Sequence record: NC_047776.2
From: Escherichia phage ESCO5
Length of the DNA stretch: 64,000 nucleotides
Reading direction: 5' to 3' (one strand)
Shown here: positions 771-61,247 of the stretch, piece after piece
Numbering within the stretch: position 1 is the first letter of the stretch
Layout: each line of letters starts with the position of its first letter
Position numbers and translations under genes: made by a program
The notes under the pieces: model-generated
What the model was told of the DNA's origin: nothing
The model's database searches: none
What the model saw: the letters and a program-made list of their open reading frames with translations, nothing else

Positions 771-778
771 AACCCTCC

Positions 779-2612: not shown

Positions 2613-3697
2613 TCGAAGTCAAGCTCCTCATCATCAGAGAGATCTTTGTTAGCTGAATTCAATTTGTAGTTAGTTAACTGAATCTCTTGGGCTGCTGACT
2701 GAATCAAATCAGGATTCAACCATTTTTCCATCCAAGCTAAAGGGCTATGTTTAGGTGCTTTAAACTTGGCTTTCATTTTCAATCGACGATAAATAGGAGC
2801 AGCATTGAAATAAACCCACTGTTTAGACAATTCGGCGTTAAGACCTACAATAAAACGACCTTCACTAAACAGGTAGTCACACCACTGTTCCTCTTGTTCA
2901 ACAACAGTGTCGAGGATCAAAGTCAACTCTTCAATATTGTCTTCGTAAATTTTACGCCAAATTGGGTCATGCATCAATGCATCAATTACAGCATAATCCA
3001 TCTTAACATGCAAGATTTCATCTAGCATAATTTTCTGGATCAGTTTACAAGCTCCAACAAACAGTTGTTGTTCTGCCATAGCAAAAGTAGCAGAGAAGGA
3101 AGATATAAACTGAATACCTTCTAACCCAATCAGGGCTACCATCCCTTTAAGAATCAGCAGTCGAAGTTCATCGTTAGCTTCAATCAATCCTAGAGCATAC
3201 TTATGACCAGCTTCTTCCAACTGACCCATGATATCAGCAATGATACCCATACGATTGAAAATTTTATCATTAATCATAATCTGATTGATGACTTCAATTG
3301 GATCTGGAGTACATTGACGGATTATTTCAGAATACGTTAACGCATGGAGAACTTCCATTTCACTCTGCTTCATCATCATAGCACAGGCTTCATTGTTACT
3401 CAAGAATGGAGAGAACAAAGTGATGATTGATTTTGCAAGAGAATCATTTTCCCATTGGAACGATAAGTTTTTAATCATAACATCATAGTTGTTTTTAGAA
3501 CAAGCTACGAAATCTTTACGTGTCTGATCCAAGTTAACTTCGTTTTCATCCCAATCTTGTGCTTTTTGAAGTTTGTAGAGTTTGTGCATTTCTGGATAAG
3601 TCACGTTAACAGAATCAAAGATCCCTAATTGCTCCCCCAAAAATACTGGATATTTCCCTGTCTTGTAAACTTCGTTGTGTAAATTAATTGCTGCCAT
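2609..3697 (-). CDS. nrdB: ribonucleotide reductase class Ia beta subunit (NrdB)
   Basis: 362 aa; ferritin-like di-iron R2 pattern (EEAGHKYAL...GLEGIQF...LDEILHVK); paired with nrdA. Confidence 0.9.
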   Translation of the reverse strand: MAAINLHNEVYKTGKYPVFLGEQLGIFDSVNVTYPEMHKLYKLQKAQDWDENEVNLDQTRKDFVACSKNNYDVMIKNLSFQWENDSLAKSIITLFSPFLSNNEACAMMMKQSEMEVLHALTYSEIIRQCTPDPIEVINQIMINDKIFNRMGIIADIMGQLEEAGHKYALGLIEANDELRLLILKGMVALIGLEGIQFISSFSATFAMAEQQLFVGACKLIQKIMLDEILHVKMDYAVIDALMHDPIWRKIYEDNIEELTLILDTVVEQEEQWCDYLFSEGRFIVGLNAELSKQWVYFNAAPIYRRLKMKAKFKAPKHSPLAWMEKWLNPDLIQSAAQEIQLTNYKLNSANKDLSDDEELDFE

Positions 3698-4022
3698 TTA
3701 AATCCTCCACTATTTCACAAAAACCTTTTAAGTTTAAAATATCTTGTTCCTCAACACCATTAATCCGGTAGAAACCTTCTAAGGCTTGCCATACGCTTCT
3801 ACCAAGTATAACAGTCACTGTTTCTTCACTTCTTGCTCTTGTTATTGCGTAAGCCGTAGCTTCTGGATAAAAAGATTCCCAAATCTGGATATTAGCTATT
3901 TGAAGTCCGCCAAGATAATGGTGACACCAAACAGGGGTAAAATCTTCAGGGGGAATCAACAAAGGCTTAAACCCAGGACGGTAGATTGGGGTTACTCCAG
4001 GTAAAACTATAAGTGTGCTCAT
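3684..4022 (-). CDS. hypothetical protein
   Basis: 112-aa ORF between the homing endonuclease and nrdB; RBS GAGGAGAG upstream. Confidence 0.45.
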   Translation of the reverse strand: MSTLIVLPGVTPIYRPGFKPLLIPPEDFTPVWCHHYLGGLQIANIQIWESFYPEATAYAITRARSEETVTVILGRSVWQALEGFYRINGVEEQDILNLKGFCEIVEDLNGSN

Positions 4023-4034
4023 AATCTCTCCTCA

Positions 4035-4057
4035 ATAAAAAAGGGGCCGAAGCCCCT
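4035..4057 (-). terminator. rho-independent terminator
   Basis: Minus strand GGGGC-TTCG-GCCCC hairpin followed by a T-run, just after the stop of 4064-4723. Confidence 0.55.
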
Positions 4058-4063
4058 GTATTG

Positions 4064-4723
4064 TTAGCCTCGGAATACTGTTTTTGTTTCTGCCAGATTG
4101 TAATAGAAATCCGACTTGTTTACAAGTGTTTTGTAAACATCCTTACAAAAATGATCTTCCTGTTTGTAACGTTCCGCTGTCTCTTTGATGGACTTGGCTT
4201 TATCCTTAAGCCAAGCAAAATGTGCTTCTTCTTCTGTTGCAAAGTATCCTAAATGTTTGCTCTTGCTACCAGAAGCTTTGGCATAAATTTTACCATCTCC
4301 TTTCCTGACGTGCGCTCCCAGTAAATACTTCCTTTCTGTTCTCTTTGAGAAACTCAAAAGGGTATTCACATACGGAGGAACAAATCTACAATATTCAGGG
4401 CAGTATACAGTATTACCTTCCAGAACAAGGTCTTTGTCTAAAACAAAACCTTCGACATTATGTTCTTGATACCAGGTATCAAAATTTGAGAAAGTAAACC
4501 AAGAATCACACACAGTAGTAAACTCATAACCAGGACGTGTGTCCTTCATTTTATAAGCCCTATCAAACATGTTCCTCCACGCTGCATAAGAAGGATCTAT
4601 GAAAGTGTTTACTCTCTTCCCATTAATGGTTCCCCCTTCCCACAGTCTACGATCTACGTCCACAATCAAGGGGATTTCTCCCCTCTCTGTGAGAACGGTA
4701 ACTTTACGTTTACCCTTCTTCAT
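4064..4723 (-). mobile_element. AP2-domain homing endonuclease-like gene inserted between nrdA and nrdB
   Basis: 219 aa; AP2-like segment GKIYAKASGSKSKHLGYFATEEEAHFAW; paralog of 21002-21607; nrd intergenic position is a classic homing-endonuclease site. Confidence 0.55.
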
Positions 4724-4734
4724 CTGTTCTCCTA

Positions 4735-6978
4735 CTACATTTTACAGGCACTACACCCTTCGTCTTCAGAATCTTCTTGTGCTAAAGAATCTGCTGATTT
4801 TGTTCTACTATTAAGGTAATACAATGATTTGCCACCCAGTCTAGCAAAATTCAGAATAAACTGCATCTCAGCTTTCACGGATAAACGTCCACCTACTAAT
4901 TTAGAATAATCTAGCCAAGAATCACAAGAAATTCCTTGGTCAGTAAATTTGGTAAAGATACCATACATTTCTGCAAGGTCTTTAGCCGGAGTATCCCAGG
5001 CAGATTGGTAGAACATTTTCAGTTTTTCGTAGTCTGGAACAATAAATAATACACTACCTTTCTGACTTTGTTTATACATAATGGTATCACGGACAGGATA
5101 CAGAGAGTTAGTAGTATTGCTTACCAAACTGCTGGACTCATTAGGTGCAATAGCAGCCAATACACTGTTACGGATACCACCTTGTTCAATGATTTCAGCA
5201 CGTAAGCCTTCCCAGTCCATTTTAAGATCAAAATTACCGATACTATCTACTGTTTTAGCATAGGTGTCAATTGGTAGCCAACCTTGAGGCCATTTGGTCT
5301 TATCGATCCATTCCGCATTACCTTTTTCCTTAGCCAGACGCAGAGAGGCTTTTGCCAACCAAAAGTAATGACGTTCTGCAAGTTCATGCATTAATTTTTT
5401 AGCATAAGCATCTGAATAATTTACAAAATTACTTGCCAAGTAATGCGCTAAGTTTGTAATACCTACACCAATAGATCTACGTGCTTTAGCAGTTATTTCG
5501 TTATGTTTAAATGGATAATCCATTGTTTCAATAACGTTGTCAATTGTCAATACAGTGTAGTATGCAACATCCTCATATTCTTCAGGTAATACACGACCAG
5601 CAACAATAGAAGATAAGAAGCATAAAGCCAATTCTTGATCTTCTGTATTCTCACCAGTAAAGAGATCCGGCATACTGTGGAAAGCTTTAGTTGGCAAGAA
5701 GATCTCTTGACACAGGTTTGATTGATACACCGTATCCAGGAAAGGTGTATGGTTGTTAACGTTGTCAGCAAAGAACATGTAAATACGTCCTGTTTCTGCA
5801 CGTTGAACAATAATCTCTGTCAGAAGATCACGAGCCTTAACAAATTTTTTCTTAATGCGACGACGACTTACTTTGTCATAAACTGCATCAAACTCTTCTT
5901 CACTTTTATATAAAGCTTCATAAAGTTCAGGAGCATCATCACAACTAACTAACATCCAGTCTTCGTTTTTTGCTGCTCGACGCAAGAACGAACGGTTAAC
6001 AACAATAGAATAATCTAGTTTATCCACTCGTTTATCTATAGGTGTTGTTGGATTCTTCAGTCGAATCAGATCGTCGAAGTCTGGTTCAAGTATGGTAAAG
6101 GTAACTGTAGCACTACCTCCACGGCTTGCTTGCTTTGAAGCTCCAACACTATCTTCCATCCATTTCAGATACGGAAGAAGACCACCGTGAATAATACGAT
6201 TATTCTTAACACCTTGACCTGTGGCACGAGTTTGAAGATTAACACCAATACCTGCGTTATTCAACGTATACTCATGAGCTAAGTAATTAGCAATGGCTAA
6301 AGACTCTGCCGTATCGTCTGCACGGAATAAACAACAAGACGCACTTCCTTTGATTGGAGTTCGTAGAGTTGTCAGATATGGCGATGGCAGATTAATCTTA
6401 AGATCGCTGACATAAGTATAAAGTTTTTTAATATCTTCTATACGGCGTTCTTTTGGTTGGATCTCCATAACCTTCATTGCGATACCAATGAAAAGGAACT
6501 GTGGAGACTCATGCACCACATCGTTTACTGCATCTCGAATAAGATATTTATCCACCATTTGACGTAAAACAGAATAACCATAAGTTAGATTTTTATTATG
6601 CTTTACAATCTTACCGATTTCTTTGATCTCTTCATCAGTATAATCCATTTTAGCCCAATGACCACGTTCTACCATATCATGATAAAAGGTATTCAGTGAA
6701 GGGATACTGTGGTATCCCCCATGAGCCTGTTTGTAAATCATACCCAGAAGAAGTCTTCCTGCCATATCACTGTAAGCTTGTGTTTTCTTGTCAATACACG
6801 CTGCAATCATTGCTTTATGCAGATCACGTGTAGACACACCGTCATAACACCGCTTCACAGCTTCTAATTCAATTTCAGACCAGTTTAGTTTACCTGCTGC
6901 AAATTCAGACCACTTGCGAAGTTTTTCTGGGTTAAACTCCTCTGTCTTACCATTAGATTTAGTTACAAAACGAATCAA
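4735..6978 (-). CDS. nrdA: ribonucleotide reductase class Ia alpha subunit (NrdA)
   Basis: 747 aa; N-terminal ATP-cone-like segment, then large catalytic domain; adjacent to nrdB. Confidence 0.9.
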   Translation of the reverse strand: MIRFVTKSNGKTEEFNPEKLRKWSEFAAGKLNWSEIELEAVKRCYDGVSTRDLHKAMIAACIDKKTQAYSDMAGRLLLGMIYKQAHGGYHSIPSLNTFYHDMVERGHWAKMDYTDEEIKEIGKIVKHNKNLTYGYSVLRQMVDKYLIRDAVNDVVHESPQFLFIGIAMKVMEIQPKERRIEDIKKLYTYVSDLKINLPSPYLTTLRTPIKGSASCCLFRADDTAESLAIANYLAHEYTLNNAGIGVNLQTRATGQGVKNNRIIHGGLLPYLKWMEDSVGASKQASRGGSATVTFTILEPDFDDLIRLKNPTTPIDKRVDKLDYSIVVNRSFLRRAAKNEDWMLVSCDDAPELYEALYKSEEEFDAVYDKVSRRRIKKKFVKARDLLTEIIVQRAETGRIYMFFADNVNNHTPFLDTVYQSNLCQEIFLPTKAFHSMPDLFTGENTEDQELALCFLSSIVAGRVLPEEYEDVAYYTVLTIDNVIETMDYPFKHNEITAKARRSIGVGITNLAHYLASNFVNYSDAYAKKLMHELAERHYFWLAKASLRLAKEKGNAEWIDKTKWPQGWLPIDTYAKTVDSIGNFDLKMDWEGLRAEIIEQGGIRNSVLAAIAPNESSSLVSNTTNSLYPVRDTIMYKQSQKGSVLFIVPDYEKLKMFYQSAWDTPAKDLAEMYGIFTKFTDQGISCDSWLDYSKLVGGRLSVKAEMQFILNFARLGGKSLYYLNSRTKSADSLAQEDSEDEGCSACKM

Positions 6979-21926: not shown

Positions 21927-22119
21927 TTACTACCTCCATACGATCTAAAAAGTCATTCACAAATCTCCAGTAACGTTGACCTGTTCTAAGATCTTCATAG
22001 ATAACCACAGGATCAAACACTTTAGATATTCCGGCGGGTTTTGGAAATTCCACTACTGTATATAAACCACCTTTTGCTACACAAGAATAGGTTACGCCTG
22101 TAATTGGATAGTTGCTCAT
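21880..22119 (-). CDS. hypothetical protein
   Basis: 79-aa ORF. Confidence 0.35.
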   Translation of the reverse strand: MSNYPITGVTYSCVAKGGLYTVVEFPKPAGISKVFDPVVIYEDLRTGQRYWRFVNDFLDRMEVVSGENTEEVIKAKERY

Positions 22120-22310
22120 TTCTTTACGTACTCCATGATTGGGGTATGGTCGCCAGTAAGCGTAACACGGCTGTAGGACACATCTTGTGTCTTCAATGTA
22201 TCAATCCACTCTAAGAAGTGTTCTTTCGCTTCTGTGTAGTTCTGTGTGCCTTTAACAACGTGTATACCATCTAGAGTTACACGGAATACCATTTGAATAA
22301 CGTCTTTCAT
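22116..22310 (-). CDS. hypothetical protein
   Basis: 64-aa ORF. Confidence 0.35.
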   Translation of the reverse strand: MKDVIQMVFRVTLDGIHVVKGTQNYTEAKEHFLEWIDTLKTQDVSYSRVTLTGDHTPIMEYVKK

Positions 22311-22423
22311 TTCTTACCTCCCTTGTTTTCAAAATAACTTACTAGAACATCGTGAACCACACACATGGCAAAAATCAGAACAATTGTTGTCAGGACTGGA
22401 TTCTCACTAATTAGTGCTATCAT
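22307..22423 (-). CDS. hypothetical small membrane protein
   Basis: Internal start of track ORF 22307-22504 (MIALISENPVLTTIVLIFAM...) preceded by GGAGGTGG RBS. Confidence 0.3.
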   Translation of the reverse strand: MIALISENPVLTTIVLIFAMCVVHDVLVSYFENKGGKK

Positions 22424-22730
22424 CTTTAACCACCTCCAATTGCCTTTCGAGTTTGACTTTGTTTGAGAACTGATAATGACACAACTTACATTGCATGTCA
22501 ACAATCTGATCGTGATTTAACCCTACAATTTTAACTTCCTTTGCACCATCCCACTCCAAATACTCAAAGCCATCCAAATGATTACTCTTGTCCAACAGGA
22601 ATGCTATCTGCTGCCATTCAATCTGAATGTCATTTAAATGATATGCTGCACAGAATATATCTTCATAGTAAAAAACGATCATTGTCATTGCTTCGTCCAG
22701 CACAACTACCTCTTGTCTTGTAAATCTCAT
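22407..22730 (-). CDS. hypothetical protein (first gene of the leftward early block)
   Basis: 107-aa ORF abutting the divergent intergenic region. Confidence 0.4.
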   Translation of the reverse strand: MRFTRQEVVVLDEAMTMIVFYYEDIFCAAYHLNDIQIEWQQIAFLLDKSNHLDGFEYLEWDGAKEVKIVGLNHDQIVDMQCKLCHYQFSNKVKLERQLEVVKDDSTN

Positions 22731-22974
22731 TCTAGCCTCCTAAACGCGTCTCTGACGCACTTTTTATATATAAGATGATAAATCACCTTACCTAGTAAGT
22801 GAACTTGCTCTACGAGCCTCTTATGAAGCTTATGTTATAGGCTATACTATTGCTACCTGTTTAAGCAAGGTTTTTGCACAAAGAAAATAATTTTTAATAA
22901 AACTCTTGACTTTTGTGTTCGAAGTATGCTACCCTAGAAATCTATTAACGAGCGCAGCGAGTTAAGGTTTTAGG

Positions 22975-23200
22975 TTGTTGATGTAGTACTCTGTACTCAA
23001 GTACTGTACTCCGTACTAGATTAATAATTATTAAATATTAATAATAAATAATTATTAGATCTAACAAACAGGTACAGTGTATCAGAACTGGTACGTACAG
23101 ATCAACTTCTATCAATTAAAAAATAAAATAATAAATTATTATAAATAATACTTGATCTATAGATCAGTATGAAGTACAGTACAGAACATCTTAACAAGAA
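22975..23200. promoter_or_regulatory. divergent AT-rich control region with GTAC-core repeats and GATC palindromes (candidate origin / promoter hub)
   Basis: Six or more GTACT/GTACAG repeats in both orientations flanking AT-only stretches; palindrome GATCTATAGATC; lies between minus-strand early and plus-strand blocks. Confidence 0.4.
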
Positions 23201-23211
23201 TGGAGGTGTGC

Positions 23212-23385
23212 AATGATTAGCGAGAATCCGTGCAAATGGCATCATGTACCTATTAAAGATTGTATGTCTTGTAATCCACGTTCTATTTATAACATTGCAT
23301 CTTATGACGATGACAATGTGTTAGACGATGATGAAGGCTGGGAGGATTTAGATTGGACTGGTTATGAAACCAAAAAAGGATAAAA
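23212..23385 (+). CDS. hypothetical small protein
   Basis: 57-aa ORF MISENPCKWHHVPIKDCMSCNPRS... with GGAGG RBS; below track cutoff. Confidence 0.35.
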
Positions 23386-23395
23386 TTATTCCTAG

Positions 23396-23424
23396 TTGAC
23401 TTAAGATATCCTTCGTGCTAAACT
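23396..23424 (+). promoter_or_regulatory. sigma70-like promoter
   Basis: TTGACT, 17-nt spacer, TAAACT. Confidence 0.4.
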
Positions 23425-23436
23425 AGAAGTGAGGAG

Positions 23437-23688
23437 ATGCCGATCACTCCCCATTTGGGGTTCGAAGGATATATGCAAAATAGTTTTTATTTTAGGCGCC
23501 GTGCTTGTAATAGGCATTTGACAAACCACTCCAGACGTGATAAAAATGGAGTCATCAAGGAATCAGACCTCTGTTCTATTTGCACAGGTTTGGCTTTTGA
23601 TGATAGTCCCGAAAGGGTTTATCAGCATCAATGTATAACAGACGTTCTCGTGTCAAACTTGGTAGAGGACGAACAACTAACAGATTAG
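23437..23688 (+). CDS. hypothetical protein
   Basis: 83-aa ORF with GAGGAG RBS. Confidence 0.4.
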   Translation: MPITPHLGFEGYMQNSFYFRRRACNRHLTNHSRRDKNGVIKESDLCSICTGLAFDDSPERVYQHQCITDVLVSNLVEDEQLTD

Positions 23689-23696
23689 GAGGAACA

Positions 23697-23945
23697 ATGT
23701 CTCTATTAGAAAAACACGTGTTTGAAGATGGTAACGGCAATGCAGTTTTTCTTTTCCATCCAGAAAAATACACATCTGAAAACAATGGTACAACTTCTAT
23801 TGTAATCACTAAAGATGTTAAAGTTATTGATTTCTTGGCTCTGATGCGAGAGATGGATCTTGAAATTAATACTTTTAACGCAGAAGCTTTGGTTGTTGCT
23901 CTTCTGGAAAAGAAAGATAGTGAAGAAGTAGCAGAATATGCTTAA
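23697..23945 (+). CDS. hypothetical protein
   Basis: Internal ATG of track ORF 23631-23945 preceded by AGGAGG (MSLLEKHVFEDGNGN...). Confidence 0.4.
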   Translation: MSLLEKHVFEDGNGNAVFLFHPEKYTSENNGTTSIVITKDVKVIDFLALMREMDLEINTFNAEALVVALLEKKDSEEVAEYA

Positions 23946-24192
23946 ATAACTATTGACAAACGTATCCTTCATATGTTAGGATACGTTCATCAAGTGTGGT
24001 AACAGGGTCGTTGACTTTTGTTAAGAGAGGCTTGCACTGCGGATAGTGTTAGAGACTACTTCTTCAGAGGTTAGCTACCAAAGAGGAAAAGGAATAGTCT
24101 CGGCTCAAGAACTTTTACGCTGAAAGTTGGGCTTGGTCTTAGAGAATGTAGCGGTTCCCTACAATCGTCAGCGTCTCTGTTACCACATTTAT

Positions 24193-24267
24193 GGCCCTGT
24201 AGCTCAATGGGAGAGCTGTCGGCTCATAACCGATAGGTAGCTGGATCGAAACCAGCCAGGGCCACCA
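24193..24267 (+). tRNA. tRNA with CAT anticodon (Met or Ile2)
   Basis: GGCCCTG acceptor pairs CAGGGCC; anticodon loop CTCATAA; encoded CCA. Confidence 0.7.
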
Positions 24268-24269
24268 AC

Positions 24270-24344
24270 GTCTTTATGGTGTAATGGATAGCACAGGAGT
24301 CTTCTAAACTCTTAGTCAAGGTTCGATTCCTTGTAAAGACACCA
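24270..24344 (+). tRNA. tRNA-Arg (TCT)
   Basis: Acceptor GTCTTTA/TAAAGAC; anticodon arm GGAGT-CTTCTAA-ACTCT; T-loop TTCGATT; CCA. Confidence 0.65.
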
Positions 24345-24540
24345 GAACATTTTAACATGAATTAGCTCAAGTGATTTGAACCCACTACTGATCATGGTGG
24401 CAGAGAATGAGGCAAGTATGTCAGACATTATAAACAAAGGCCACGGTTATATTAGAAGACATAAATGCTCGAAGAGCACCGTTCGTGGAGAACGGGGGTT
24501 GGTGGAGTCACCATTCATGGTAAAATGTTTTAAAAAACTA

Positions 24541-24569
24541 TTGACAACAAACATTATTTTATGTTAGAT
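24541..24569 (+). promoter_or_regulatory. sigma70-like promoter
   Basis: TTGACA, 17-nt spacer, TTAGAT; upstream of tRNA-Ser. Confidence 0.4.
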
Positions 24570-24578
24570 TATAAGTAT

Positions 24579-24669
24579 GGAAGGGCAAATCGACGTGGCG
24601 ACGAAAACGGTCTTGAAAACCGCCGAGCTTGAAAGAGCCTTGGGAGTTCGACTCTCCCTCCTTCCGCCA
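24579..24669 (+). tRNA. tRNA-Ser (TGA), type II
   Basis: Acceptor GGAAGGG/TCCTTCC, loop CTTGAAA, long variable arm; close to E. coli Ser(UGA) arms. Confidence 0.65.
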
Positions 24670-24674
24670 GATTA

Positions 24675-24760
24675 GGTAGATTGGTGAAATGGTAGCCACG
24701 ACAGTTTGCTAAACTGTAGTCGGAAACGGCGTGTAGGTTCGAGTCCTACATCTACCGCCA
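24675..24760 (+). tRNA. tRNA-Ser (GCT), type II
   Basis: Acceptor GGTAGAT/ATCTACC, anticodon loop TTGCTAA, long variable arm, CCA. Confidence 0.6.
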
Positions 24761-24890
24761 AGTTCTTTTTAATGTAGCTTACTTTAGCAGAGTAAATCTT
24801 CGGCAAGTGGCGGTAACCACTTTACCGATACCTCATAGTTAGTGGTGCGAACACTGGCTATTTTAAAAAGAATTTAAATATTAGTATTTA

Positions 24891-24978
24891 GGTGAGTTAA
24901 TTCCGTAGGGGTAGCGGGGCAGACTGTAAATCTGTTATCATTGCGATTCGGGTGGTTCGACTCCATCACTCACCACCA
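24891..24978 (+). tRNA. tRNA-Tyr (GTA), type II
   Basis: Acceptor GGTGAGT/ACTCACC, anticodon arm CAGA-CTGTAAA-TCTG, long variable arm, CCA. Confidence 0.6.
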
Positions 24979-24984
24979 AATTAA

Positions 24985-25070
24985 GATGAGTTGGCTGAAT
25001 GGTTTAAGCGGCGGACTGTTAATCCGTGTTCGAAAGAACAATATAGGTTCGAATCCTATACTCATCGCCA
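24985..25070 (+). tRNA. tRNA-Asn (GTT) with an unusually long variable arm
   Basis: Acceptor GATGAGT/ACTCATC, discriminator G; anticodon arm GCGGA-CTGTTAA-TCCGT matches E. coli tRNA-Asn; ~15-nt GTTCGAAAGAAC hairpin before T-arm; 86 nt. Confidence 0.5.
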
Positions 25071-25080
25071 GAATTATGGA

Positions 25081-25158
25081 CTTGTAGAGTTAAGGTAAAC
25101 CCCCAGTCGCCAATAGGCTTCTGGAATTGCAGGTATCGAATCCTGCCGAGTCCCAGCA
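25081..25158 (+). ncRNA. tRNA-like element, anticodon arm unresolved
   Basis: Acceptor GGACTTG/CGAGTCC and T-arm GCAGG-TATCGAAT-CCTGC present; central region does not fold into canonical D/anticodon arms by eye; no CCA. Confidence 0.3.
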
Positions 25159-25160
25159 TT

Positions 25161-25235
25161 GCTCCTATAGTATAATGGCTATTACAACGGTTTTGTAATC
25201 CGTGGATCTCTGTTCGATTCAGTGTGGGAGCACCA
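25161..25235 (+). tRNA. tRNA-Thr (TGT) (putative)
   Basis: Acceptor GCTCCTA/TGGGAGC, D-arm like E. coli Gly, anticodon loop TTTGTAA, CCA. Confidence 0.5.
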
Positions 25236-25508
25236 ACACAACATTAAGAGCACTGTGATTGATCGTCGTATCCTGTGCACAAGGTCTGCTCGAAAGACAG
25301 TGTTCTTAGTATTGTGTTGATCACAAAAAGAGTCACCCGAAACTTGACCGGAGTAGGGTTGGATGGGGCAAAATGAGAAGCGGCTCTCCCATCGACAGCA
25401 ACGAAGAATAATATTTGACTTTTGTTTTGTATTATTTTAAGTTAGCTTACCGAACGTAGGGCTAGTCACCCAACGGGATACTCGTCACTGTCCCACTCAA
25501 TAAAACTA

Positions 25509-25538
25509 TTGACAACCAATAGTAAAATGTAGTATAGT
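25509..25538 (+). promoter_or_regulatory. sigma70-like promoter
   Basis: TTGACA, 18-nt spacer, TATAGT; upstream of tRNA-Gly. Confidence 0.45.
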
Positions 25539-25549
25539 AAAGATGTAGG

Positions 25550-25623
25550 GCGTTCTTGGTGTAGCGGTAGCATTCCGTCCTTCCAAGTCGGCGGCACGAG
25601 TTCGATCCTCGTAGAACGCTCCA
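25550..25623 (+). tRNA. tRNA-Gly (TCC)
   Basis: Acceptor GCGTTCT/AGAACGC, anticodon loop CTTCCAA, T-loop TTCGATC, CCA. Confidence 0.6.
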
Positions 25624-25721
25624 AATTATTTAATAAAGGGTTGCCAGAAAACTTTCTCTTTTACTCATGGTTTTCTCCTTCTCTCACACTTCTTCTGGTT
25701 GCCCTTCATTAAATGATTTAT

Positions 25722-25797
25722 TGGTTTGTAGTGTAGTCCGGTAGCACACGACACTTTGACTGTCGTAGGTTTGGTTCAAATCCAGACAGACCAGCCA
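25722..25797 (+). tRNA. tRNA-Gln (TTG)
   Basis: T1-A72 start TGGTTTG/CAGACCA like E. coli Gln, anticodon arm CGACA-CTTTGAC-TGTCG, CCA. Confidence 0.65.
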
Positions 25798-25870
25798 TAT
25801 AACAAAGGTGAGTCACTACCTTAAGTGTGAAGTTAAAAACGAGGAGCCGCCGAACACTTTCTTTTGCGGT

Positions 25871-25947
25871 GTACCTTTAGAATGTTATCACGGGACGTAG
25901 CACAGCTTGGTAGTGCGCTCGCTTTGGGAGCGAGAGGTCGAGTGTTC
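25871..25947 (+). tRNA. tRNA-Pro (TGG)
   Basis: Acceptor CGGGACG/CGTCCCG, anticodon arm CTCGC-TTTGGGA-GCGAG, CCA. Confidence 0.7.
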
Positions 25948-25953
25948 GAATCA

Positions 25954-26027
25954 CTCCGTCCCGACCAATTAAATGTTTCGTAGTTCAATGGTAGAACCCA
26001 CGACTGATAATCGTGAGACACAAGTTC
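25954..26027 (+). tRNA. tRNA-Ile (GAT)
   Basis: Acceptor TGTTTCG/CGAAACA, anticodon arm CACGA-CTGATAA-TCGTG, CCA. Confidence 0.65.
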
Positions 26028-26028
26028 G

Positions 26029-26098
26029 ATTCTTGTCGAAACAACCAGTTTCCCGTTAGACTTACAGGATAAGAGATCCACAATTTATTGTGACGCTG
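26029..26098 (+). ncRNA. tRNA-like element, anticodon arm unresolved
   Basis: T-arm GCTGG-TTCGAAT-CCAGC and acceptor-like TCCCGT/ACGGGA; interior has a CACAAT-TT-ATTGTG hairpin instead of a 7-nt anticodon loop; no CCA. Confidence 0.3.
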
Positions 26099-26125
26099 GT
26101 TCGAATCCAGCACGGGATACATAAT

Positions 26126-26204
26126 AGCGGGATAGAGGAGTCTGGTCGTCCTCGCCAGTTTCATATGCTGGAGATCATTGGTTCAAATCCAATTCCCGCC
26201 TCCA
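26126..26204 (+). tRNA. second tRNA with CAT anticodon (Met or Ile2)
   Basis: Anticodon arm CCAGT-TTCATAT-GCTGG, T-loop TTCAAAT, 3' TCCCGCC-T-CCA; possible 1-72 A/C mismatch. Confidence 0.55.
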
Positions 26205-48869: not shown

Positions 48870-51023
48870 ATGAAACAAGCTATATTTACTGTCACGCGAG
48901 ACAAGAGAGTAAATGCGAGTTCATTTAACTACACGACTGTTGATGGAACAGCAGTCGCTGGTAGAGATTATATTGCAAAATCGGGAACACTTGTGTTCCC
49001 TGATGATGCTGATTCTGCTACCATTGTGGTTGAAGTATTTGAACGACCAAAGAACTCAATAGATCTTAACTTCTCCCTCCAAGTTTCAGGGATTAGTCAA
49101 AATAACATGATGGTTGAAACGACCATCAACTGTATTATAACTACGATTCAAGAAAATACTACTCCAATAACTTGGACTACAAAAGACGTTAAAATGTTCT
49201 CTCCTATGTATTGGACAATAGATTCTCAAGCAACGGAAAGTTGTTCTATTGTATCTCATGGAGACTCTTTTACTGCAAGATTTGTAAACAGAACAACAGC
49301 AGGTTTGGCAGGGGTTATCTGGAGCACAGTTGACAAATATGACCATAAAGGTGTTGGGTATTTACCCCACACAGATTTAAGTTCAGAGAAACTTTGGTTT
49401 AAAATGGAAGTTAGTCAAAACATGCCAGGTTTTAAAGAAGAACCTTTGGTGCCAACTTTGACTGTAACTCTCTTGGATAAAAGTGTCCACTATGTTAGTT
49501 TAGGATTTTATGCTTCAGATATTTCAGAAGATGGTAAAACAGCTACAATCAAACTAGATTTTGGTAATATCTTCTCTGGTCCTAATAATGATATTCCTTT
49601 GGACATGAGTGCTGTAGATAATATTTTCTTCTCTTTGATTACAGCAAGGTATGAAGAAATAGAAGAGATTGTACCTATTGATAGTCAAGAGGCTTGGTTT
49701 ACTTTCACTCTTCTTGAACCTACTTCTGGTTATAGTATGATGAAAGTCAGTAACCTTGTCCAGCCTGAACATGATATTCGCATGTGCACATCTTATGACG
49801 ATATGTATAACCTGACTCCAGAGAGAGTTATTTATAATACATATGCGCTAGGTTATCGTGGAATGATTAACCATTACAACGGAATGTCTCACTATTATGA
49901 GTTCTCATGGAACGGAACATCTTGGGCTTTAAATAGATCTGTCTTCCTGAATCCAGCTACAGAAGCTTGGCTAAATAGTTTCCATTCTATAGCGAACGAG
50001 AAGGGTTACACAATAATGAACTCTTTAAGTTTTGAGTTGATGAGCACAGTTTGTCCTGTAGAATGGGTCCAGCATGATTGGAACGATGCTCTTGCAGCAA
50101 CAGGGTATGAGCCTCCTAGTTACGTGTTGTCTCCAACTATTGACGAAGGTATGAAATATTTGCAAAATGTTATTAATAAAATAGCATCTATTTCGCAAGC
50201 TAATAATATTCCAGTTGTCATTCAAATTGGTGAGCCTTGGTGGTGGTATAATACAGCGAGTAAAATGCCTTGTATATACGATTACACTACTAAACTAGCA
50301 TTCAACACAGAAACAGGTTTATTTGCACAAGATGTAGGAACAATAGATAATTATAAAACAGGAACACCGTTTGACGAATACTATGCATTTTTGTCTCGTA
50401 AACTAGGATTAAGAGTTGCAAAGTTTGCAACAGATACTAGATTAGCCTATCCTGGAGCTAAAGTTACATTATTACCATTTGTGCCATCCATTTTAGGTAA
50501 CGGTATGATGGAGTTTGTTAACTTCCCTAAAGATTATTATATCCCAGAAAACTTCGACTTTTATTGTTCAGAGTGTTATGACTGGTTGTTGGAAGGTAAG
50601 ATGGAAAAATCTTTTGACGCTATCACAATACCTAATGAACAATTAGGTTTTAGTTATGATAAGATACATTATCTTGCAGGTTTTGTTCCAGATGCTACTC
50701 TTGCACCTTTGTATAGCTTTGATCCTGAATCAAACTACCGCACGTATCTTTGGAAAATGATTATAGGTAACATAGTGTTGAACGCCAATAAGTTCAATGG
50801 ACTTACACAATATATATGGGCCTATCCTCAAATAATGCACGATTCTATCACGGTAGTTAATTCTCAATCCCAAGTTTTCTATATGGGTAACGTGCCTTTG
50901 AACGTTTATTTACAGGATATCACTCTTAAACAGGTAAATGTTGAGATTGCCACCATAAGTGGAATTACATTAGCCACTAAATCTGGAGAAGATTTAGTAA
51001 CAACACAAAAATTTTATATATAG
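48870..51023 (+). CDS. tail fibre / baseplate-associated protein (putative)
   Basis: 717-aa ORF in the fibre cluster. Confidence 0.35.
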   Translation: MKQAIFTVTRDKRVNASSFNYTTVDGTAVAGRDYIAKSGTLVFPDDADSATIVVEVFERPKNSIDLNFSLQVSGISQNNMMVETTINCIITTIQENTTPITWTTKDVKMFSPMYWTIDSQATESCSIVSHGDSFTARFVNRTTAGLAGVIWSTVDKYDHKGVGYLPHTDLSSEKLWFKMEVSQNMPGFKEEPLVPTLTVTLLDKSVHYVSLGFYASDISEDGKTATIKLDFGNIFSGPNNDIPLDMSAVDNIFFSLITARYEEIEEIVPIDSQEAWFTFTLLEPTSGYSMMKVSNLVQPEHDIRMCTSYDDMYNLTPERVIYNTYALGYRGMINHYNGMSHYYEFSWNGTSWALNRSVFLNPATEAWLNSFHSIANEKGYTIMNSLSFELMSTVCPVEWVQHDWNDALAATGYEPPSYVLSPTIDEGMKYLQNVINKIASISQANNIPVVIQIGEPWWWYNTASKMPCIYDYTTKLAFNTETGLFAQDVGTIDNYKTGTPFDEYYAFLSRKLGLRVAKFATDTRLAYPGAKVTLLPFVPSILGNGMMEFVNFPKDYYIPENFDFYCSECYDWLLEGKMEKSFDAITIPNEQLGFSYDKIHYLAGFVPDATLAPLYSFDPESNYRTYLWKMIIGNIVLNANKFNGLTQYIWAYPQIMHDSITVVNSQSQVFYMGNVPLNVYLQDITLKQVNVEIATISGITLATKSGEDLVTTQKFYI

Positions 51024-51031
51024 GAGTAAAA

Positions 51032-53797
51032 ATGTCAACTACAATTACTAATTTACCCGAAACATCAAAAGTTAATGGTTCTGATTACCTGGTTTTAGAC
51101 CAACCTGATAAGACTGTTAAAAGCACAGTTTCCAACTTTCTTACTGACACTGGGGTGGTTTTAGCCACCCAGTTAAAAGATATTTCTGGAGCTACCAAGT
51201 ACCCAGAACTTCAAATGTCACGCTGGAGAGATGAAGGTGATCCTAGAGGATGGGGAGCAGTAGGTGACGGAGCAACAGACGATACCAATGCCATAACACA
51301 GCTTCTTGCTGCTATGCCTGATGGATGGATTATTGATGGGCGTAATCTCACTTTCAAGGTTACAACACTACCAGATATAAGCAAGTTTAAAAACGCTGCT
51401 TTTGTTTACGAGCGTATTGTTGGACAACCCCTTACTTATGTATCTGAAGGTTTCTTCGATGGAAATCTGACAAAGATTACGGATACACCATTTTACAATG
51501 CTTGGACGCAAGATAAGACGTTTGTTTATGACAATGTTATATATGCACCATTTATGGCTGGCGAACGTCATGGTGTACAAAACCTCCATGTAGCGTGGGT
51601 TAAATCAGGAGATGATGGACAAACTTGGTCTATGCCAGAATGGTTAACTCCAATTCATCCTGATTATAATGCCTCTTCAGCAAACAAAGTTAACTATCAT
51701 TGTATGAGTATGGGCGTATGTGGTAATCGCCTATATGCAGTCATCGAAACCCGTTATTTATCTAACATGCGATTGAAGAAAGCAGAACTTTGGTCACGTC
51801 CAATGCCTTATTATAGAAGGCCAACTGGAGGTATAACAATTAGTTCTGGGTCTACTACGGCGACGATTGTTTTAGAAAAGCATGGTCTTAAAGTTGGAGA
51901 TGCTGTTAACTTTTCCAATTCAGGTGCAACTGGTGTATCTGGAAATATGACTGTTGCATCTGTAATTAACAAGGATACATTTACTGTTACATTAGCGAGT
52001 GCTGCCACATCTAATATAGATAATACAGGAACTACTTGGCATTTTGGAACACGTTTCTGGGATAGCCCTTGGGAAATTACAGAATTACCAGATGTTGCCT
52101 ATTCTACTAATGCAGACTTATGTGTTACAGAAACCCATAGTTTTACAGTTATAGATGATGATAATTACACTTTTGCTGTGGGTTATCACAATGGTGATGT
52201 TTCCCCAAGAAGATTAGGTATTTTGTATTTCAATAATGCTTACTCTGACCCAAGTTCTTTTACTCGTAGAACAATTAGTCAAGAATATGCTGACAATGCA
52301 GCAGAACCCTGCATTAAATATTATGATGGAATTTTATATTTAACTACTAGGGGTACTTCAACTTCTGCTGCTGGTTCTACATTAGCAATGAGTGCTGACC
52401 TTGGAGAAAACTGGAATTACTTAAGATTTCCTAACAACGTTCATCATACAAACCTACCATTTGCAAAAGTTGGTAACTACCTTTATATCTTTGGTACAGA
52501 ACGTTCATTTGGAGAATGGGAAGGAGAAGAACTAGATAATAGATATAAAGGTACGTATCCTCGAACGTTTATGTGCAAGATTAATGTATCTGCATGGCCT
52601 GCATCTTTATCCGATGTTCAATGGTTTAATATCACCGATCAGATGTATCAAGGGCATATTGTTAATTCTGCATGTGGTGTTGGTTCGGTATGTGTTAAAG
52701 ATGGTTGGTTATATTATATCTTTGGAGGCGAAGATTTCTTATCTCCTTGGTCTATTGGGGATAATAGTAAAAAATTATGGTACAAGCACGATGGTCATCC
52801 AGCCGATTTATATAGCTATAGACTAAAGATTACCGAACATGATTTTGTATCACGTGATTTCAAATATGGAGCTACGCCAAACCGTACATTGCCTGTATCT
52901 ATGGGTACAGATGGGGTAAGGCATGTCTCAGCCCCTGTAACTTTTGATAATGATGTGCAAGTACACTCTTTAACAGTTACTGGTCTTGAGCATGATGGGA
53001 CACAACAATCTGCCGTTAGAATAAAATTAGATGGTGATTATGGGGTTGTTGCAAAAAATGTCCCAATAAAAAATCCTTCTGAACAGCGACTAATCTTATG
53101 TGGAGGAGAAACTCCTTACGTTACTGATGGATCGCTATTACAACTATATGGTTCAAACCATACGTATCCAAACAGAGCAGTTTTATATGCCCCAGGAGGA
53201 GCATATACCCAAAATAATTTCATGCCATATTTAGATGGACAAGTTGCATTAGGTGGTGCATCTAACAGATGGTCAGAAGTGTACGCATCTACAGGAACCA
53301 TTAATACTTCAGATGGAACATTAAAAACTAAACCTACAGAGATTGAAGATATTTTACTGAAAGCGTGGGAAGATATTCATGTAATCTCTTATCAATGGCT
53401 GAGTGCTATCGCGGAGAAAGGAGATTCTGCGCGTATTCATTTTGGTGTTATAGCTCAAGATGTAAGAGATATTCTGATTAATTATGGTTTAATGGATGAA
53501 AATAGCACTGATTGTAAGTATGCTTTTCTGTGTTATGATGAATACCCTGCTATGTACGATAGTGTTGTTACGGGACAAAAAGAAATCCCTTTATTTGATG
53601 ATGAAGGGAATGTTGTAATTGATGAAGAAGGTAATCCAGTAACAATCGTAGAAGATGTTGTAGAAACTATCGAAATAATTCCAGCAGGATCGCGATGGGG
53701 TATCCGCGCTGACCAAATGTTTTTTATTGAGATGGCTTATCAACGTAAAAAGTTAAAAGCTCTTGAAGAAAGACTTGCAACCCTGGAAAGTAAATAA
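51032..53797 (+). CDS. tailspike/tail fibre with N-terminal beta-helix motif and C-terminal S74-type intramolecular chaperone domain
   Basis: 921 aa; GAVGDGATDDTNAI near N-terminus; C-terminal ~150 aa with HFGVIAQDV and coiled-coil end, like self-cleaving fibre chaperone domains. Confidence 0.55.
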   Translation: MSTTITNLPETSKVNGSDYLVLDQPDKTVKSTVSNFLTDTGVVLATQLKDISGATKYPELQMSRWRDEGDPRGWGAVGDGATDDTNAITQLLAAMPDGWIIDGRNLTFKVTTLPDISKFKNAAFVYERIVGQPLTYVSEGFFDGNLTKITDTPFYNAWTQDKTFVYDNVIYAPFMAGERHGVQNLHVAWVKSGDDGQTWSMPEWLTPIHPDYNASSANKVNYHCMSMGVCGNRLYAVIETRYLSNMRLKKAELWSRPMPYYRRPTGGITISSGSTTATIVLEKHGLKVGDAVNFSNSGATGVSGNMTVASVINKDTFTVTLASAATSNIDNTGTTWHFGTRFWDSPWEITELPDVAYSTNADLCVTETHSFTVIDDDNYTFAVGYHNGDVSPRRLGILYFNNAYSDPSSFTRRTISQEYADNAAEPCIKYYDGILYLTTRGTSTSAAGSTLAMSADLGENWNYLRFPNNVHHTNLPFAKVGNYLYIFGTERSFGEWEGEELDNRYKGTYPRTFMCKINVSAWPASLSDVQWFNITDQMYQGHIVNSACGVGSVCVKDGWLYYIFGGEDFLSPWSIGDNSKKLWYKHDGHPADLYSYRLKITEHDFVSRDFKYGATPNRTLPVSMGTDGVRHVSAPVTFDNDVQVHSLTVTGLEHDGTQQSAVRIKLDGDYGVVAKNVPIKNPSEQRLILCGGETPYVTDGSLLQLYGSNHTYPNRAVLYAPGGAYTQNNFMPYLDGQVALGGASNRWSEVYASTGTINTSDGTLKTKPTEIEDILLKAWEDIHVISYQWLSAIAEKGDSARIHFGVIAQDVRDILINYGLMDENSTDCKYAFLCYDEYPAMYDSVVTGQKEIPLFDDEGNVVIDEEGNPVTIVEDVVETIEIIPAGSRWGIRADQMFFIEMAYQRKKLKALEERLATLESK

Positions 53798-53825
53798 TAC
53801 CGCTTAGGCGGTATTTCAATCTTTA
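53798..53825 (+). terminator. rho-independent terminator
   Basis: ACCGC-TTAG-GCGGT followed by T-rich run. Confidence 0.5.
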
Positions 53826-53845
53826 TATCTCACTTAGAGGTACTC

Positions 53846-58193: not shown

Positions 58194-61100
58194 ATGGCAA
58201 CATTCCCAACATATCCAGCAACGTCTCTCGAACAGGGCGTAGACCTGGTTATTTTCTCATCTAACCAACTCCATGATGTTATTAATGGAAGTGCTACAGA
58301 GAGTATTGAAACAGAATCAGGGTTGATACCAACCCTGAGAAAATCCCTTGTTGACAACTTTTTCTTTAAAAGCCCATTGGATTGGGCGCAAGGCACAAAC
58401 GAAACAGTTTTTAACCAACTACGTTATTTTCAGAATGGGGTATTGAGCGGTTATTATTATGCTCCTAATGCTACATTGGTAAACCCAATTCCTATGCAAG
58501 GGACTCCAGTAGGAGATAACAACTGGGTATTGTGGGGACTGAAGACAGAACAACTAGCAACAGAAGTCACCCCTTGGGTATATTCTGGTGCAACTGGTTA
58601 TGAAACAGTAATCAGTCCTCCCTACATCTTTGATAGTGCTATTGTTACAATCAATGGTGTTATTCAGGTTCTGGGAGAAGCTTTCCGCATAGAAGATAGT
58701 AAAATCATTTTATCTGAACCTTTGGGACATGATCCTGCAACAGGACTGCCAAACAAGCTTTTTGCCTATATTGGTAAAATCGTAGCTTCCGCAGATACAG
58801 ATCCTAACTTAGAAAACCGTCTTGTCAGTTTAGAAACAAAAACTGAAGAACTGACAGAAAACATGGATAAAGTACCTTTACAAACTATTGCTCGTAAATA
58901 CGGTTTGTTGGATGACGAAGTAGCTTACGCAACAGCGGGTCAATCATTAACAGGGATTAAAGCTCTGTATGATCCGGTAGCACAATCTTCCTACACATTG
59001 CCTCCTAACATCACAGGGACTTTAACATCTTTGTCTGTTTCTGGAGTAATGACTTATTCTGGCGGATCTGTAGATCTTTCTGCATTAGCTGTTGAACGTG
59101 GACAGTTTGTTCATTTGCCTACAAGCTTTGGTAATAATGTAACTCTGACAGCTAAAAATCAGACGATTGGGCGTGGCGCTGGTCGCTATCGTTGGGCGGG
59201 AAGTTTACCAAAAAGTATTTTAGCTTCTGATACATTGGAAACAAGTGGTGGATTAGGTCCAAATGCATGGGTTCTAACTAATACAGAAGGACTGTTAACC
59301 CCTCGTGGTGGAACATACAACGATTTATTCGATGTTGTCCGCTTATCAGAATTTGCTAACAATACAACTACCTATACCACACCAGAAGCAGCTTTCCAGG
59401 CGGCACTGTTAGCAGCAAAAGCTTCGAAAAGTAAGATTCTCGACGCTTACGGTTGTGATATGACTTTCACGACAAGCTCTTTTGATATTCAAGATATCAC
59501 TTTGCGTGGGGGTGTGTTCCGTGGTCAACGCGATTATCGTGTGCAAAATGCTACAGTAGAAGGCACAACTTTCCGTAACTCTCGTGTTATGTATTGGGGT
59601 GGTGCTGTGCGCATGTTCGATTGTTTGTGGGACGGTGCTCCTCGCGCAGGTCAAGTTGGTAGCTTGGTATTCCAAGGAAACCCAATATCAGGTACTTTTG
59701 AAATTGATAATTGTACTTTTAAAAACGGGTTATATGGCATCCTTCAACAAGGAACAGGGGAACCAGTAACACGCGGTGTCTTCCGTAACCTTACCTTCAT
59801 GGACATGCAAGGTGATGCAATAGAACTGAACGTCATCAATAAACATTATGATGATGGTTGTGTGATTGAGAATATTTACCTGTCTAATATTGATGGGACT
59901 AACGCTCCTATTCCTCTGTCCAACTGGGGTATCGGTATTGGTGTGGCTGGTAAAGGACCATATGGTTACGGAATTCCTGATGATCAATATTGCAAGAATA
60001 TTACAATTCGTAACGTTTTTGCAAAACGTTGTCGTCAGATTGTCCACGTAGAAGTTGGTCGTAATATTTCTATCGAAAACATTCATGGCGATCCAGATCA
60101 AACTGTATCTGTTGGGACAGGTTTGGCAACTGGCGCAGTTGTAATGTATGGAAGTAAAGATTTTACGATTGATGGTGTTTACGGAGAGCCTAAAACAGAC
60201 GGTAGCACACTTGCAAGTAATATCCGTATGATTTATTTGGAGTGGGGAACTAACGCAGTTCTGGATGAAGAGGGCAATCCGGTAGTTCCGGCACAGGGCA
60301 GACCTTCAAACCCATGCTTTAACTATTCTGTTCGTAACATTCACACCAAAACTGGGCGTGTTTTTGCAGGAGTTTCCGCTGGGCCAGGTTATGAAAACAG
60401 AGTCAGCTTTGAGAATATCCATTGTGCTGCGTTGCAGTTGTTCGGTGTAGCTTCTTGGCTTTCAATGTCTAACATCACCTGTAATATCTTTGATTGTGTT
60501 GGTCAACCTGAATCTGGTCCAGGGACATTTTATGATGGATTCTTCCGTAGAGAAAAATCTGTTCTTGAGATGGTTAACGTAAACTGTTACCCAGATGGCA
60601 AGACTATGGTTACTGGTCGCCCACAGTGGAGCCGTTGCCGTTACTCTGATATTCATCGTGTCAACTGTAATGTTGAAGCTAATATGTATACCAATATCGC
60701 AGGTGGTATTGGAGCTATTGTAGGGACAACTGGCAAAGTTTATTACTTAGAGCCTAACCCTAGCCGAAACATTGATGGGATGCATTTCCCAACAGGGAAG
60801 GAGTTTGACAAAGGGGATATGATAGTCAAAGCGGATAATACGTTCTTCCTTGTAACAACAAGTGGGGCATACATTCCAGATATCCCAGCTTTCGGTATTC
60901 GAGCTACACAAGCAGGAGATACCTTCCTGACACAGAACTTGACTCCTAATGGGACAGCAACAAACGCTTCTTGGTTGTATCACTATCCTCTGTCAGCAGG
61001 AACACGTATCCGTATTCCTGGTGCTGGTGTAGGTGGAGCAGATTTGGACACAGTTATTACTCGTGCACCTTATCAAGATAATGATACGTGGACTAACCCA

Positions 61101-61247
61101 GTTAAAATAGACATTGCAGATCCAATTGTAACGCCTACGAGTGCTGGAGTTAGAATCAAAACCATACCTAACGATTCTAGTAATGTTTCTGTAGGTAATA
61201 CTGCGGTTATTCGCCCAACACCAGTGGTAGATGTGCCAACAACCTAA
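58194..61247 (+). CDS. tailspike-like protein with parallel beta-helix-like repeats (possible depolymerase)
   Basis: 1017 aa; repeated Asn/Gly/Val-rich segments (NITIRNVFAKRCRQIVHVEVGRNISIENIHGD). Confidence 0.4.
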   Translation: MATFPTYPATSLEQGVDLVIFSSNQLHDVINGSATESIETESGLIPTLRKSLVDNFFFKSPLDWAQGTNETVFNQLRYFQNGVLSGYYYAPNATLVNPIPMQGTPVGDNNWVLWGLKTEQLATEVTPWVYSGATGYETVISPPYIFDSAIVTINGVIQVLGEAFRIEDSKIILSEPLGHDPATGLPNKLFAYIGKIVASADTDPNLENRLVSLETKTEELTENMDKVPLQTIARKYGLLDDEVAYATAGQSLTGIKALYDPVAQSSYTLPPNITGTLTSLSVSGVMTYSGGSVDLSALAVERGQFVHLPTSFGNNVTLTAKNQTIGRGAGRYRWAGSLPKSILASDTLETSGGLGPNAWVLTNTEGLLTPRGGTYNDLFDVVRLSEFANNTTTYTTPEAAFQAALLAAKASKSKILDAYGCDMTFTTSSFDIQDITLRGGVFRGQRDYRVQNATVEGTTFRNSRVMYWGGAVRMFDCLWDGAPRAGQVGSLVFQGNPISGTFEIDNCTFKNGLYGILQQGTGEPVTRGVFRNLTFMDMQGDAIELNVINKHYDDGCVIENIYLSNIDGTNAPIPLSNWGIGIGVAGKGPYGYGIPDDQYCKNITIRNVFAKRCRQIVHVEVGRNISIENIHGDPDQTVSVGTGLATGAVVMYGSKDFTIDGVYGEPKTDGSTLASNIRMIYLEWGTNAVLDEEGNPVVPAQGRPSNPCFNYSVRNIHTKTGRVFAGVSAGPGYENRVSFENIHCAALQLFGVASWLSMSNITCNIFDCVGQPESGPGTFYDGFFRREKSVLEMVNVNCYPDGKTMVTGRPQWSRCRYSDIHRVNCNVEANMYTNIAGGIGAIVGTTGKVYYLEPNPSRNIDGMHFPTGKEFDKGDMIVKADNTFFLVTTSGAYIPDIPAFGIRATQAGDTFLTQNLTPNGTATNASWLYHYPLSAGTRIRIPGAGVGGADLDTVITRAPYQDNDTWTNPVKIDIADPIVTPTSAGVRIKTIPNDSSNVSVGNTAVIRPTPVVDVPTT

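Follow-up and report, generated by a model that had tools for sequence, protein, structure and literature searches.

The locus between positions 51032 and 53797 of a 64,000-nucleotide stretch of Escherichia phage ESCO5 (sequence record NC_047776.2; this whole stretch is referred to below as the window) raises the question of what kind of tail protein is encoded there, and of whether this protein keeps its full length in the virion. An original prediction, made from the sequence alone, was that the locus specifies a tailspike with a beta-helix enzyme domain and a C-terminal, S74-type, self-cleaving chaperone domain. The answer to which the present analysis leads, with a probability that we put at about 0.96, is that the product is the precursor of a phage endosialidase (endo-N-acetylneuraminidase) tailspike that carries a self-cleaving chaperone domain at its C-terminus.

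The open reading frame (ORF) listing of the window contains a single long ORF at 51032..53797 on the plus strand, which starts with ATG and is uninterrupted across 921 codons; the ORF is thus real and intact. Comparison with GenBank (three megablast queries, comprising window positions 1-25000, window positions 39001-64000, and the gene itself) showed that the window is 100% identical to positions 34474..98473 of Escherichia phage vB_EcoM_REC (REC hereafter; OM386667.1), a 156-kb myovirus of the genus Phapecoctavirus (Stephanstirmvirinae) with the avian-pathogenic E. coli BEN4358 as its isolation host. The gene is identical (100%) to positions 85505-88270 of that record, where it is named REC_00244 and given the product "endo-N-acetylneuraminidase"; it encodes an endosialidase precursor of 921 amino acids and 102.5 kDa, the orthologue of gp143 of phage phi92. 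PMC10269720 describes this depolymerase (ESCO5_00098 in ESCO5 and REC_00244 in REC) as 96% identical to the endosialidase of phi92 and ties REC_00244 to the degradation of K1/K92 capsules and to a wide range of hosts. The feature is thus not new: GenBank and the REC paper already record the gene, what its product is called, and how it relates to the phi92 enzyme.

As to how the gene is expressed, a ribosome-binding site, AGGAG (51022..51026, plus strand), can be read from the sequence 5 nt before the ATG, partly coinciding with the TAG that ends the preceding gene (51021-51023); the same AGGAG motif is annotated as the ribosome-binding site of phi92 gene 143. A scan for sigma-70 promoters around the gene returned 28 sites as compared with 22.3 +/- 5.5 in shuffled sequence, and, since this is not above the count in shuffled sequence, no promoter is claimed.

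The identity of the protein is based on its domain architecture. Searches against Pfam gave five domains in the canonical order for endosialidases, each over its gathering score. After the first 75 residues, for which the same profile search of the protein found no Pfam family, comes the N-terminal extension, End_N_terminal (PF12218; residues 76-142, 51257..51457; E 1e-33, 115.3 bits), which is 100% identical to that of phi92. This is followed by the catalytic beta-propeller sialidase domain, End_beta_propel (PF12217; residues 143-600, 51458..52831), with an E of 1e-212 and a match that takes in positions 1-366 of the 367 in the profile, and into this propeller is inserted the beta-barrel domain, End_beta_barrel (PF12195; residues 259-341, 51806..52054; E 4.1e-38). 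The stalk domain, End_tail_spike (PF12219; residues 603-759, 52838..53308; E 1.2e-62), then leads directly into the C-terminal chaperone domain, which is recognized through Peptidase_S74 (PF13884; residues 760-819, within 53309..53794; E 1.7e-12); all of these lie on the plus strand. Solved structures tell the same story: PDB 4HIZ, the phi92 endosialidase, matches residues 75-759 with 1574 bits, and the structures 1V0E and 3GVL of endoNF, the endosialidase of phage K1F, match with an E of about 1e-237. The protein aligns continuously with both 4HIZ and 1V0E, and the N-terminal extension and the stalk flank the propeller as they do in endosialidases; identity to solved structures amounts to 97% for the head and stalk and to 50% for the chaperone domain.

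Phage endosialidases (endo-N-acetylneuraminidases) are classed as CAZy GH58. In K1F, the key catalytic residues are H350, R549, E581, R596, and R647 (PMC12632334), and these map onto H180, R393, E425, R440, and R491, which are conserved in the REC protein; in the alignment, all five are kept in REC, phi92, K1G, and K1-5. Every defining feature of phage endosialidases and of the Peptidase S74/ICA family that can be examined at the level of sequence is, in fact, present in this protein. The prediction of a tailspike is borne out. The likeness to endosialidases had, however, been noticed for the C-terminal domain alone; this likeness holds, but the protein is itself an endosialidase.

How, then, does this precursor mature? 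The C-terminal intramolecular chaperone domain (Peptidase S74/ICA) spans residues 760-921 (53309..53794, plus strand), that is, 162 residues and 18.4 kDa, close to the ~150 residues of the original prediction. The Peptidase_S74 profile search that had been proposed as a check gave 47.8 bits against a gathering score of 22. The motif GVIAQDV, which had drawn attention to this region, is present at residues 805-811 (53444-53464), and the HFGVIAQ motif lies within the chaperone domain. The structure 3GW6, a construct of the chaperone domain of K1F endoNF, matches residues 663-921 with an E of 2.2e-70, and the part of the match limited to the chaperone domain itself still has an E of 3e-60, so that the likeness to S74 intramolecular chaperone domains, as judged from such alignments, is far beyond chance. 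The last residues of the protein, AYQRKKLKALEERLATLESK (residues 902-921), are rich in leucine and align with the C-terminal segment of 3GW6; a crude count of hydrophobic residues at heptad a/d positions over the last 45 residues gave 7/13 and 8/12 in two registers, neither of which was singled out, so that the coiled coil proposed for this tail is not borne out by the count.

The predicted scissile bond lies between Thr759, the last residue of the stalk and the predicted C-terminus of the mature spike, and Ser760 (codons at 53306..53311, plus strand). This placing is based on the mature-peptide annotations in GenBank, on the end of the 4HIZ chain, and on secondary literature (PMC3742443, PMC8326128). 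In phi92, GenBank gives the mature peptides endoN92* (codons 2-756) and endoN92-CTD (757-917), and, given an insertion of three residues in the REC protein, the 756|757 boundary maps to Thr759|Ser760. In K1F, the corresponding peptides are endoNF* (2-910) and endoNF-CTD (911-1064), and Ser760, the predicted nucleophile, is aligned with K1F S911. The 4HIZ chain terminates at the residue aligned with Thr759, and the position of Ser760 is occupied by Ala in the non-cleaving 3GW6, which is the precleavage form of endoNF S911A (PMC8326128). A serine and a lysine form the catalytic dyad responsible for the cleavage of the chaperone domain (PMC3742443, PMC8326128), and the lysine K916 of K1F is aligned here with Lys765 (53324-53326). 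A third residue, the K1F R897 in the triple beta helix, acts as a helper arginine (PMC8326128); it is aligned with Arg746 in the stalk (53267-53269), where the motif SNRW stands in place of the SNRF of K1F. Across six aligned chaperone domains (those of REC, phi92, K1F, K1G, the K1-5 endosialidase, and the K1-5 K5 lyase), no variation is seen in the Ser, the Lys, or the HFG..AQ core.

These residues, the score of PF13884, and the mature peptides of phi92 and K1F all agree with the proposal of a self-cleaving S74-type chaperone at the C-terminus. The further proposal that the mature protein is shorter than the ORF stands as a prediction and can be given figures: from the precursor of 102.5 kDa, residues 2-759 would remain as the mature spike, with a mass of 83.9 kDa, whilst residues 760-921, amounting to 18.4 kDa, would be set free.

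Another reading of the same ORF is that it encodes a beta-helix depolymerase of the pectate-lyase fold that simply ends in an S74 chaperone domain. It was the motif GAVGDGATDDTNAI that led to the original proposal of a beta-helix enzyme domain; this motif is indeed present (residues 75-88, 51254-51295) and resembles the start of pectate-lyase-fold proteins, with a weak match to PF12708 (E 0.064), and S74 domains do occur on other enzymes, the K5 lyase among them. However, the match to PF12708, with 13.5 bits where 27 would be required, is below the cut-off and extends over no more than the 20 residues from 74 to 93, and this family was rejected as a candidate in view of the propeller match at E 1e-212. 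The motif spans Gly75 and part of the N-terminal extension, that is, it belongs to End_N_terminal, whilst the enzyme domain at residues 143-600 is the endosialidase beta propeller with its inserted beta barrel, and the alignments with 4HIZ and 1V0E run from end to end. The claim of a beta-helix enzyme domain is, therefore, wrong, and such a depolymerase is scarcely credible here. Hardly more credible is the reading of the gene as a decaying or inactive copy, as found in some sister phages: relatives are truncated or have been replaced at this slot, with PMC10269720 reporting a 249-bp fragment in ESCO9, and the sister phage ECO340P1 holds a frame-broken relic of the chaperone domain, but here the ORF is unbroken over 921 codons, the ribosome-binding site is a good one, and every catalytic residue examined has been kept.

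It is also conceivable, but very improbable, that the C-terminal domain helps the protein to fold without cleaving itself off and stays in the mature spike, such that the virion protein has the full length of the ORF. Cleavage of the ESCO5/REC protein is predicted by homology, and the non-cleaving K1F S911A protein could be crystallized as a precursor (3GW6, with Ala at the serine position; PMC8326128), which leaves some room for this idea. Against it stand the intact nucleophile (Ser760), base (Lys765), and helper residue (Arg746), together with the 96.9% identity of the chaperone domain to its counterpart in phi92, for which GenBank annotates a proteolytically matured endoN92*; moreover, the last residue in the 4HIZ chain is the one that aligns with Thr759. 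As to the self-cleaving endosialidase itself, three limits apply: what is said of its cleavage, trimeric state, and substrate range, as of its enzymatic activity, is an extrapolation from phi92 and K1F; it differs from endoN92 by three inserted residues and 27 substitutions, with a possible bearing on specificity; and the place of gp143 on the phi92 particle was obtained by fitting a model into low-resolution density (PMC13450770). Depolymerization of polysialic acid by REC_00244 is, likewise, expected by homology, and is assumed in PMC10269720; for the phi92 orthologue, both the enzymatic and the proteolytic activity have been reported. No evidence points away from the self-cleaving endosialidase.

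The nearest known system is gp143 of phi92 (endoN92; PDB 4HIZ; FR775895, gene 143), which is 97.1% identical over the full length, has the same five-domain architecture, and occupies the same slot between the homologues of gp142 and gp144, although phi92 belongs to the genus Justusliebigvirus and REC to Phapecoctavirus. The predicted maturation site is the same in both (T756|S757 in phi92, T759|S760 here). The 30 alignment positions that differ consist of the three-residue insertion in the propeller (N213, A214, S215) and the 27 substitutions, and none of the catalytic residues checked is among them. Phi92 is reported to cleave both alpha-2,8 and alpha-2,9 linkages (PMC13450770). It is imaginable, but unlikely, that the N213-S215 insertion and the substitutions (14 of the differences being in the propeller) shift the preference between the alpha-2,8 and alpha-2,9 linkages or the processivity; if this were true, these differences could play a part in determining which avian-pathogenic E. 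coli are infected by REC, ESCO5, and phAPEC8. A functional difference from endoN92 is not expected, however, because all the catalytic residues examined are unchanged.

More distant is the K1F gp17 protein, endoNF (1V0E, 3GVL, 3GW6), which is 53% identical and has the catalytic head, the stalk, and the chaperone domain in common with the REC protein; all five of its catalytic residues, its S911/K916 dyad, and its R897 are conserved here. The two proteins differ at their N-termini: in K1F, this region takes up more than 200 residues and is related to the T7 tail fibre (PMC5380687), and no similarity to REC is seen before about K1F residue 213, whereas REC has a 75-residue anchor that is specific to the Stephanstirmvirinae. 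They also differ in a loop of the chaperone domain (about residues 845-885), which is longer in REC and phi92 than in K1F. The sialidase of phage K1G (63D-type siphovirus; ADA82273) is nearer to REC than K1F is, with 74% identity over the aligned region and the same catalytic and dyad residues, but its N-terminal region for attachment is of another kind and the loop of its chaperone domain is shorter; the K1-5 endosialidase is 49% identical. Beyond the endosialidases, other S74/ICA proteins, such as the K1-5 K5 lyase, the L-shaped tail fibre of T5 (4UW8), GA-1 gp12 (3GUD), and the eukaryotic MYRF, share the Ser-x4-Lys dyad, the HFG(V/I)(I/L)AQ core, and the location after a trimeric beta-helical stalk, but the functional domains attached are unrelated, and their identity to the REC chaperone domain is about 30-35%.

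These comparisons allow a scheme of maturation to be proposed. Three chains would fold together, with residues 760-921 acting as an intramolecular chaperone that nucleates the trimerization and helps the adjoining upstream stalk to fold. Ser760, Lys765, and Arg746 of the stalk would meet only once the trimer has folded correctly; Ser760 would then cleave the peptide bond between Thr759 and itself by nucleophilic attack, and so set the chaperone domain free. The product would be a stable trimer of chains of about 84 kDa (residues 2-759), each made up of an anchor (residues 1-75) for fixing the spike to the baseplate fibre, a sialidase head formed by the beta propeller and its beta-barrel insert, and a stalk. 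On the virion, such a spike would bind and depolymerize the polysialic acid of the K1 (and probably also the K92) capsule, and so allow the phage to reach the outer membrane.

The anchor invoked in this scheme deserves attention. Residues 1-75 (51032..51256, plus strand) appear to be a particle-attachment module, a role suggested by their being common to different tailspikes in the same slot in sister phages. At the level of DNA, 79 phage records match the gene, of which 12 carry at least 80% of it and 67 do not; among the matches listed, the partial ones stop at nt 151-248 of the gene. The first 150-250 nt (51032-51280, plus strand; codons 1 to about 50-83) have a DNA identity of 92-99% with other Stephanstirmvirinae. 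This pattern points to a conserved module for attachment, in which recombination has recurred at two or more boundaries.

The sister phage ECO340P1 was compared over one such slot (its piece 3386-5332 against window positions 51032-53845). In the place of the endosialidase, it has a different spike of 536 amino acids, which is identical to REC over residues 1-70, diverges after about residue 75, and gave no Pfam match in a profile search. On the 3' side of the stop codon of this spike lies an unannotated relic of the chaperone domain, corresponding to its last third, from about codon 827 to the stop, which is frame-broken by deletions of 2 nt and 11 nt and is followed by the same hairpin (see below) and by the same next gene. 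The locus in ECO340P1 is the footprint of a cassette swap that replaced the endosialidase, one junction being at about codon 75 and the other within the chaperone domain.

The endosialidase gene lies within a baseplate and fibre module that is syntenic with phi92 genes 139-150. Immediately upstream (48870-51023, plus strand) is REC_00243, the homologue of phi92 gp142, with Calx-beta, NCTSP_N, and TIM-barrel_NCTSP domains; its GenBank product, 'non-contractile tail sheath', is odd for a myovirus with a contractile tail. This name was probably taken from the name of the Pfam family, and the protein is more likely to be a fibre or adaptor component beside the endosialidase. A recent cryo-EM study of phi92 assigned gp143, through the low-resolution fit mentioned above, to the distal part of "fiber I" (PMC13450770). 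Downstream come a small protein whose PHROG family is described as that of a membrane protein and two baseplate-wedge proteins, which in phi92 are gp145 and gp146 (PMC13450770), and, further on, a homologue of fibre III, a tail-fibre assembly protein, a colanic-acid-degrading spike, and another spike. The colanic-acid-degrading spike (58194-61247) has an internal Tail_spike_N domain (residues 302-361), and the last spike, REC_00252 (61312-63336, plus strand), has a Tail_spike_N (TSP1/Gp66) attachment domain at residues 12-77 and a collagen triple-helix repeat at residues 454-485.

At its 3' end, the endosialidase gene overlaps a hairpin: an 8-bp, GC-containing stem and a UUAG loop, AAUACCGC-UUAG-GCGGUAUU (53796..53815, plus strand), overlap the TAA stop codon. 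The predicted fold has an energy of -11.1 kcal/mol and a z of -4.8, none of 200 shuffled sequences folds as well, and the hairpin is conserved base for base in ECO340P1. In a scan of the plus strand for terminators, its T-tract was weak and fell short of the rule. The hairpin may be a weak or leaky terminator or, alternatively, an element that stabilizes RNA or protects its end before the next gene.

Elsewhere in the window, a tRNA cluster (24193-26204) holds two oddities. Bacterial tRNA-Asn has a short variable arm, the type II architecture being normally that of the bacterial tRNAs for Ser, Leu, and Tyr rather than Asn. In the cluster, an 86-nt tRNA with the anticodon GUU (Asn; 24985-25070, plus strand) has a long variable arm able to form a stem, UUC-GAAA-GAA, along with an encoded CCA and G as the discriminator base. 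In a T5-like phage and in a Justusliebigvirus, homologous tRNA-Asn genes (83-85 nt) keep the long variable arm, and the stems show compensating changes (UUC/GAA, GUC/GAC, GAAC/GUUC); because of these compensatory changes across the homologues, the extra arm is a conserved structure. A literature search for tRNA-Asn with a long variable arm in phages found nothing. The other oddity is a tRNA with the anticodon GUA (Tyr; 24891-24975, plus strand), to which Rfam gives 39 bits against a gathering score of 29, and in which the variable arm is long and a bulge of 3 nt separates the acceptor stem from the D stem. It was missed by ARAGORN and is not annotated in OM386667.1, but a tRNA-Tyr is annotated at that place, beside the tRNA-Asn, in related phages.

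The GC skew changes sign at about 22000-24200, being negative before about 22 kb and positive after. The change coincides with the passage from minus-strand genes for replication and nucleotide metabolism to the plus-strand tRNA cluster and structural genes, and it is a boundary of divergent transcription. At the very start of the window (1-1771, minus strand) are genes annotated as glucose-1-phosphate thymidylyltransferase and dTDP-glucose 4,6-dehydratase. PMC10269720 has the former among the genes that REC took from ESCO5 and that are without a counterpart in ESCO37, and the latter apparently figures in the same ESCO5-derived list.

What does all this mean? The finding carries little weight as a discovery, given that the gene and the name of its product are on record, as is the relation to endoN92, and that K1F and phi92 were the systems in which the mechanism, with chaperone-assisted folding of the trimer preceding Ser-Lys self-cleavage, was elucidated. 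The side observations, namely the tRNA-Asn with the long arm, the unannotated tRNA-Tyr, and the relic of the chaperone domain in the sister phage, are more curious than the main gene. The practical value is in the quality of annotation, in that the REC record is without mature-peptide boundaries and these can now be placed at Thr759|Ser760. When this depolymerase is expressed for use against K1 avian-pathogenic E. coli, a product of 84 kDa is to be expected, and the constructs used must retain the C-terminal domain, which is needed for folding.

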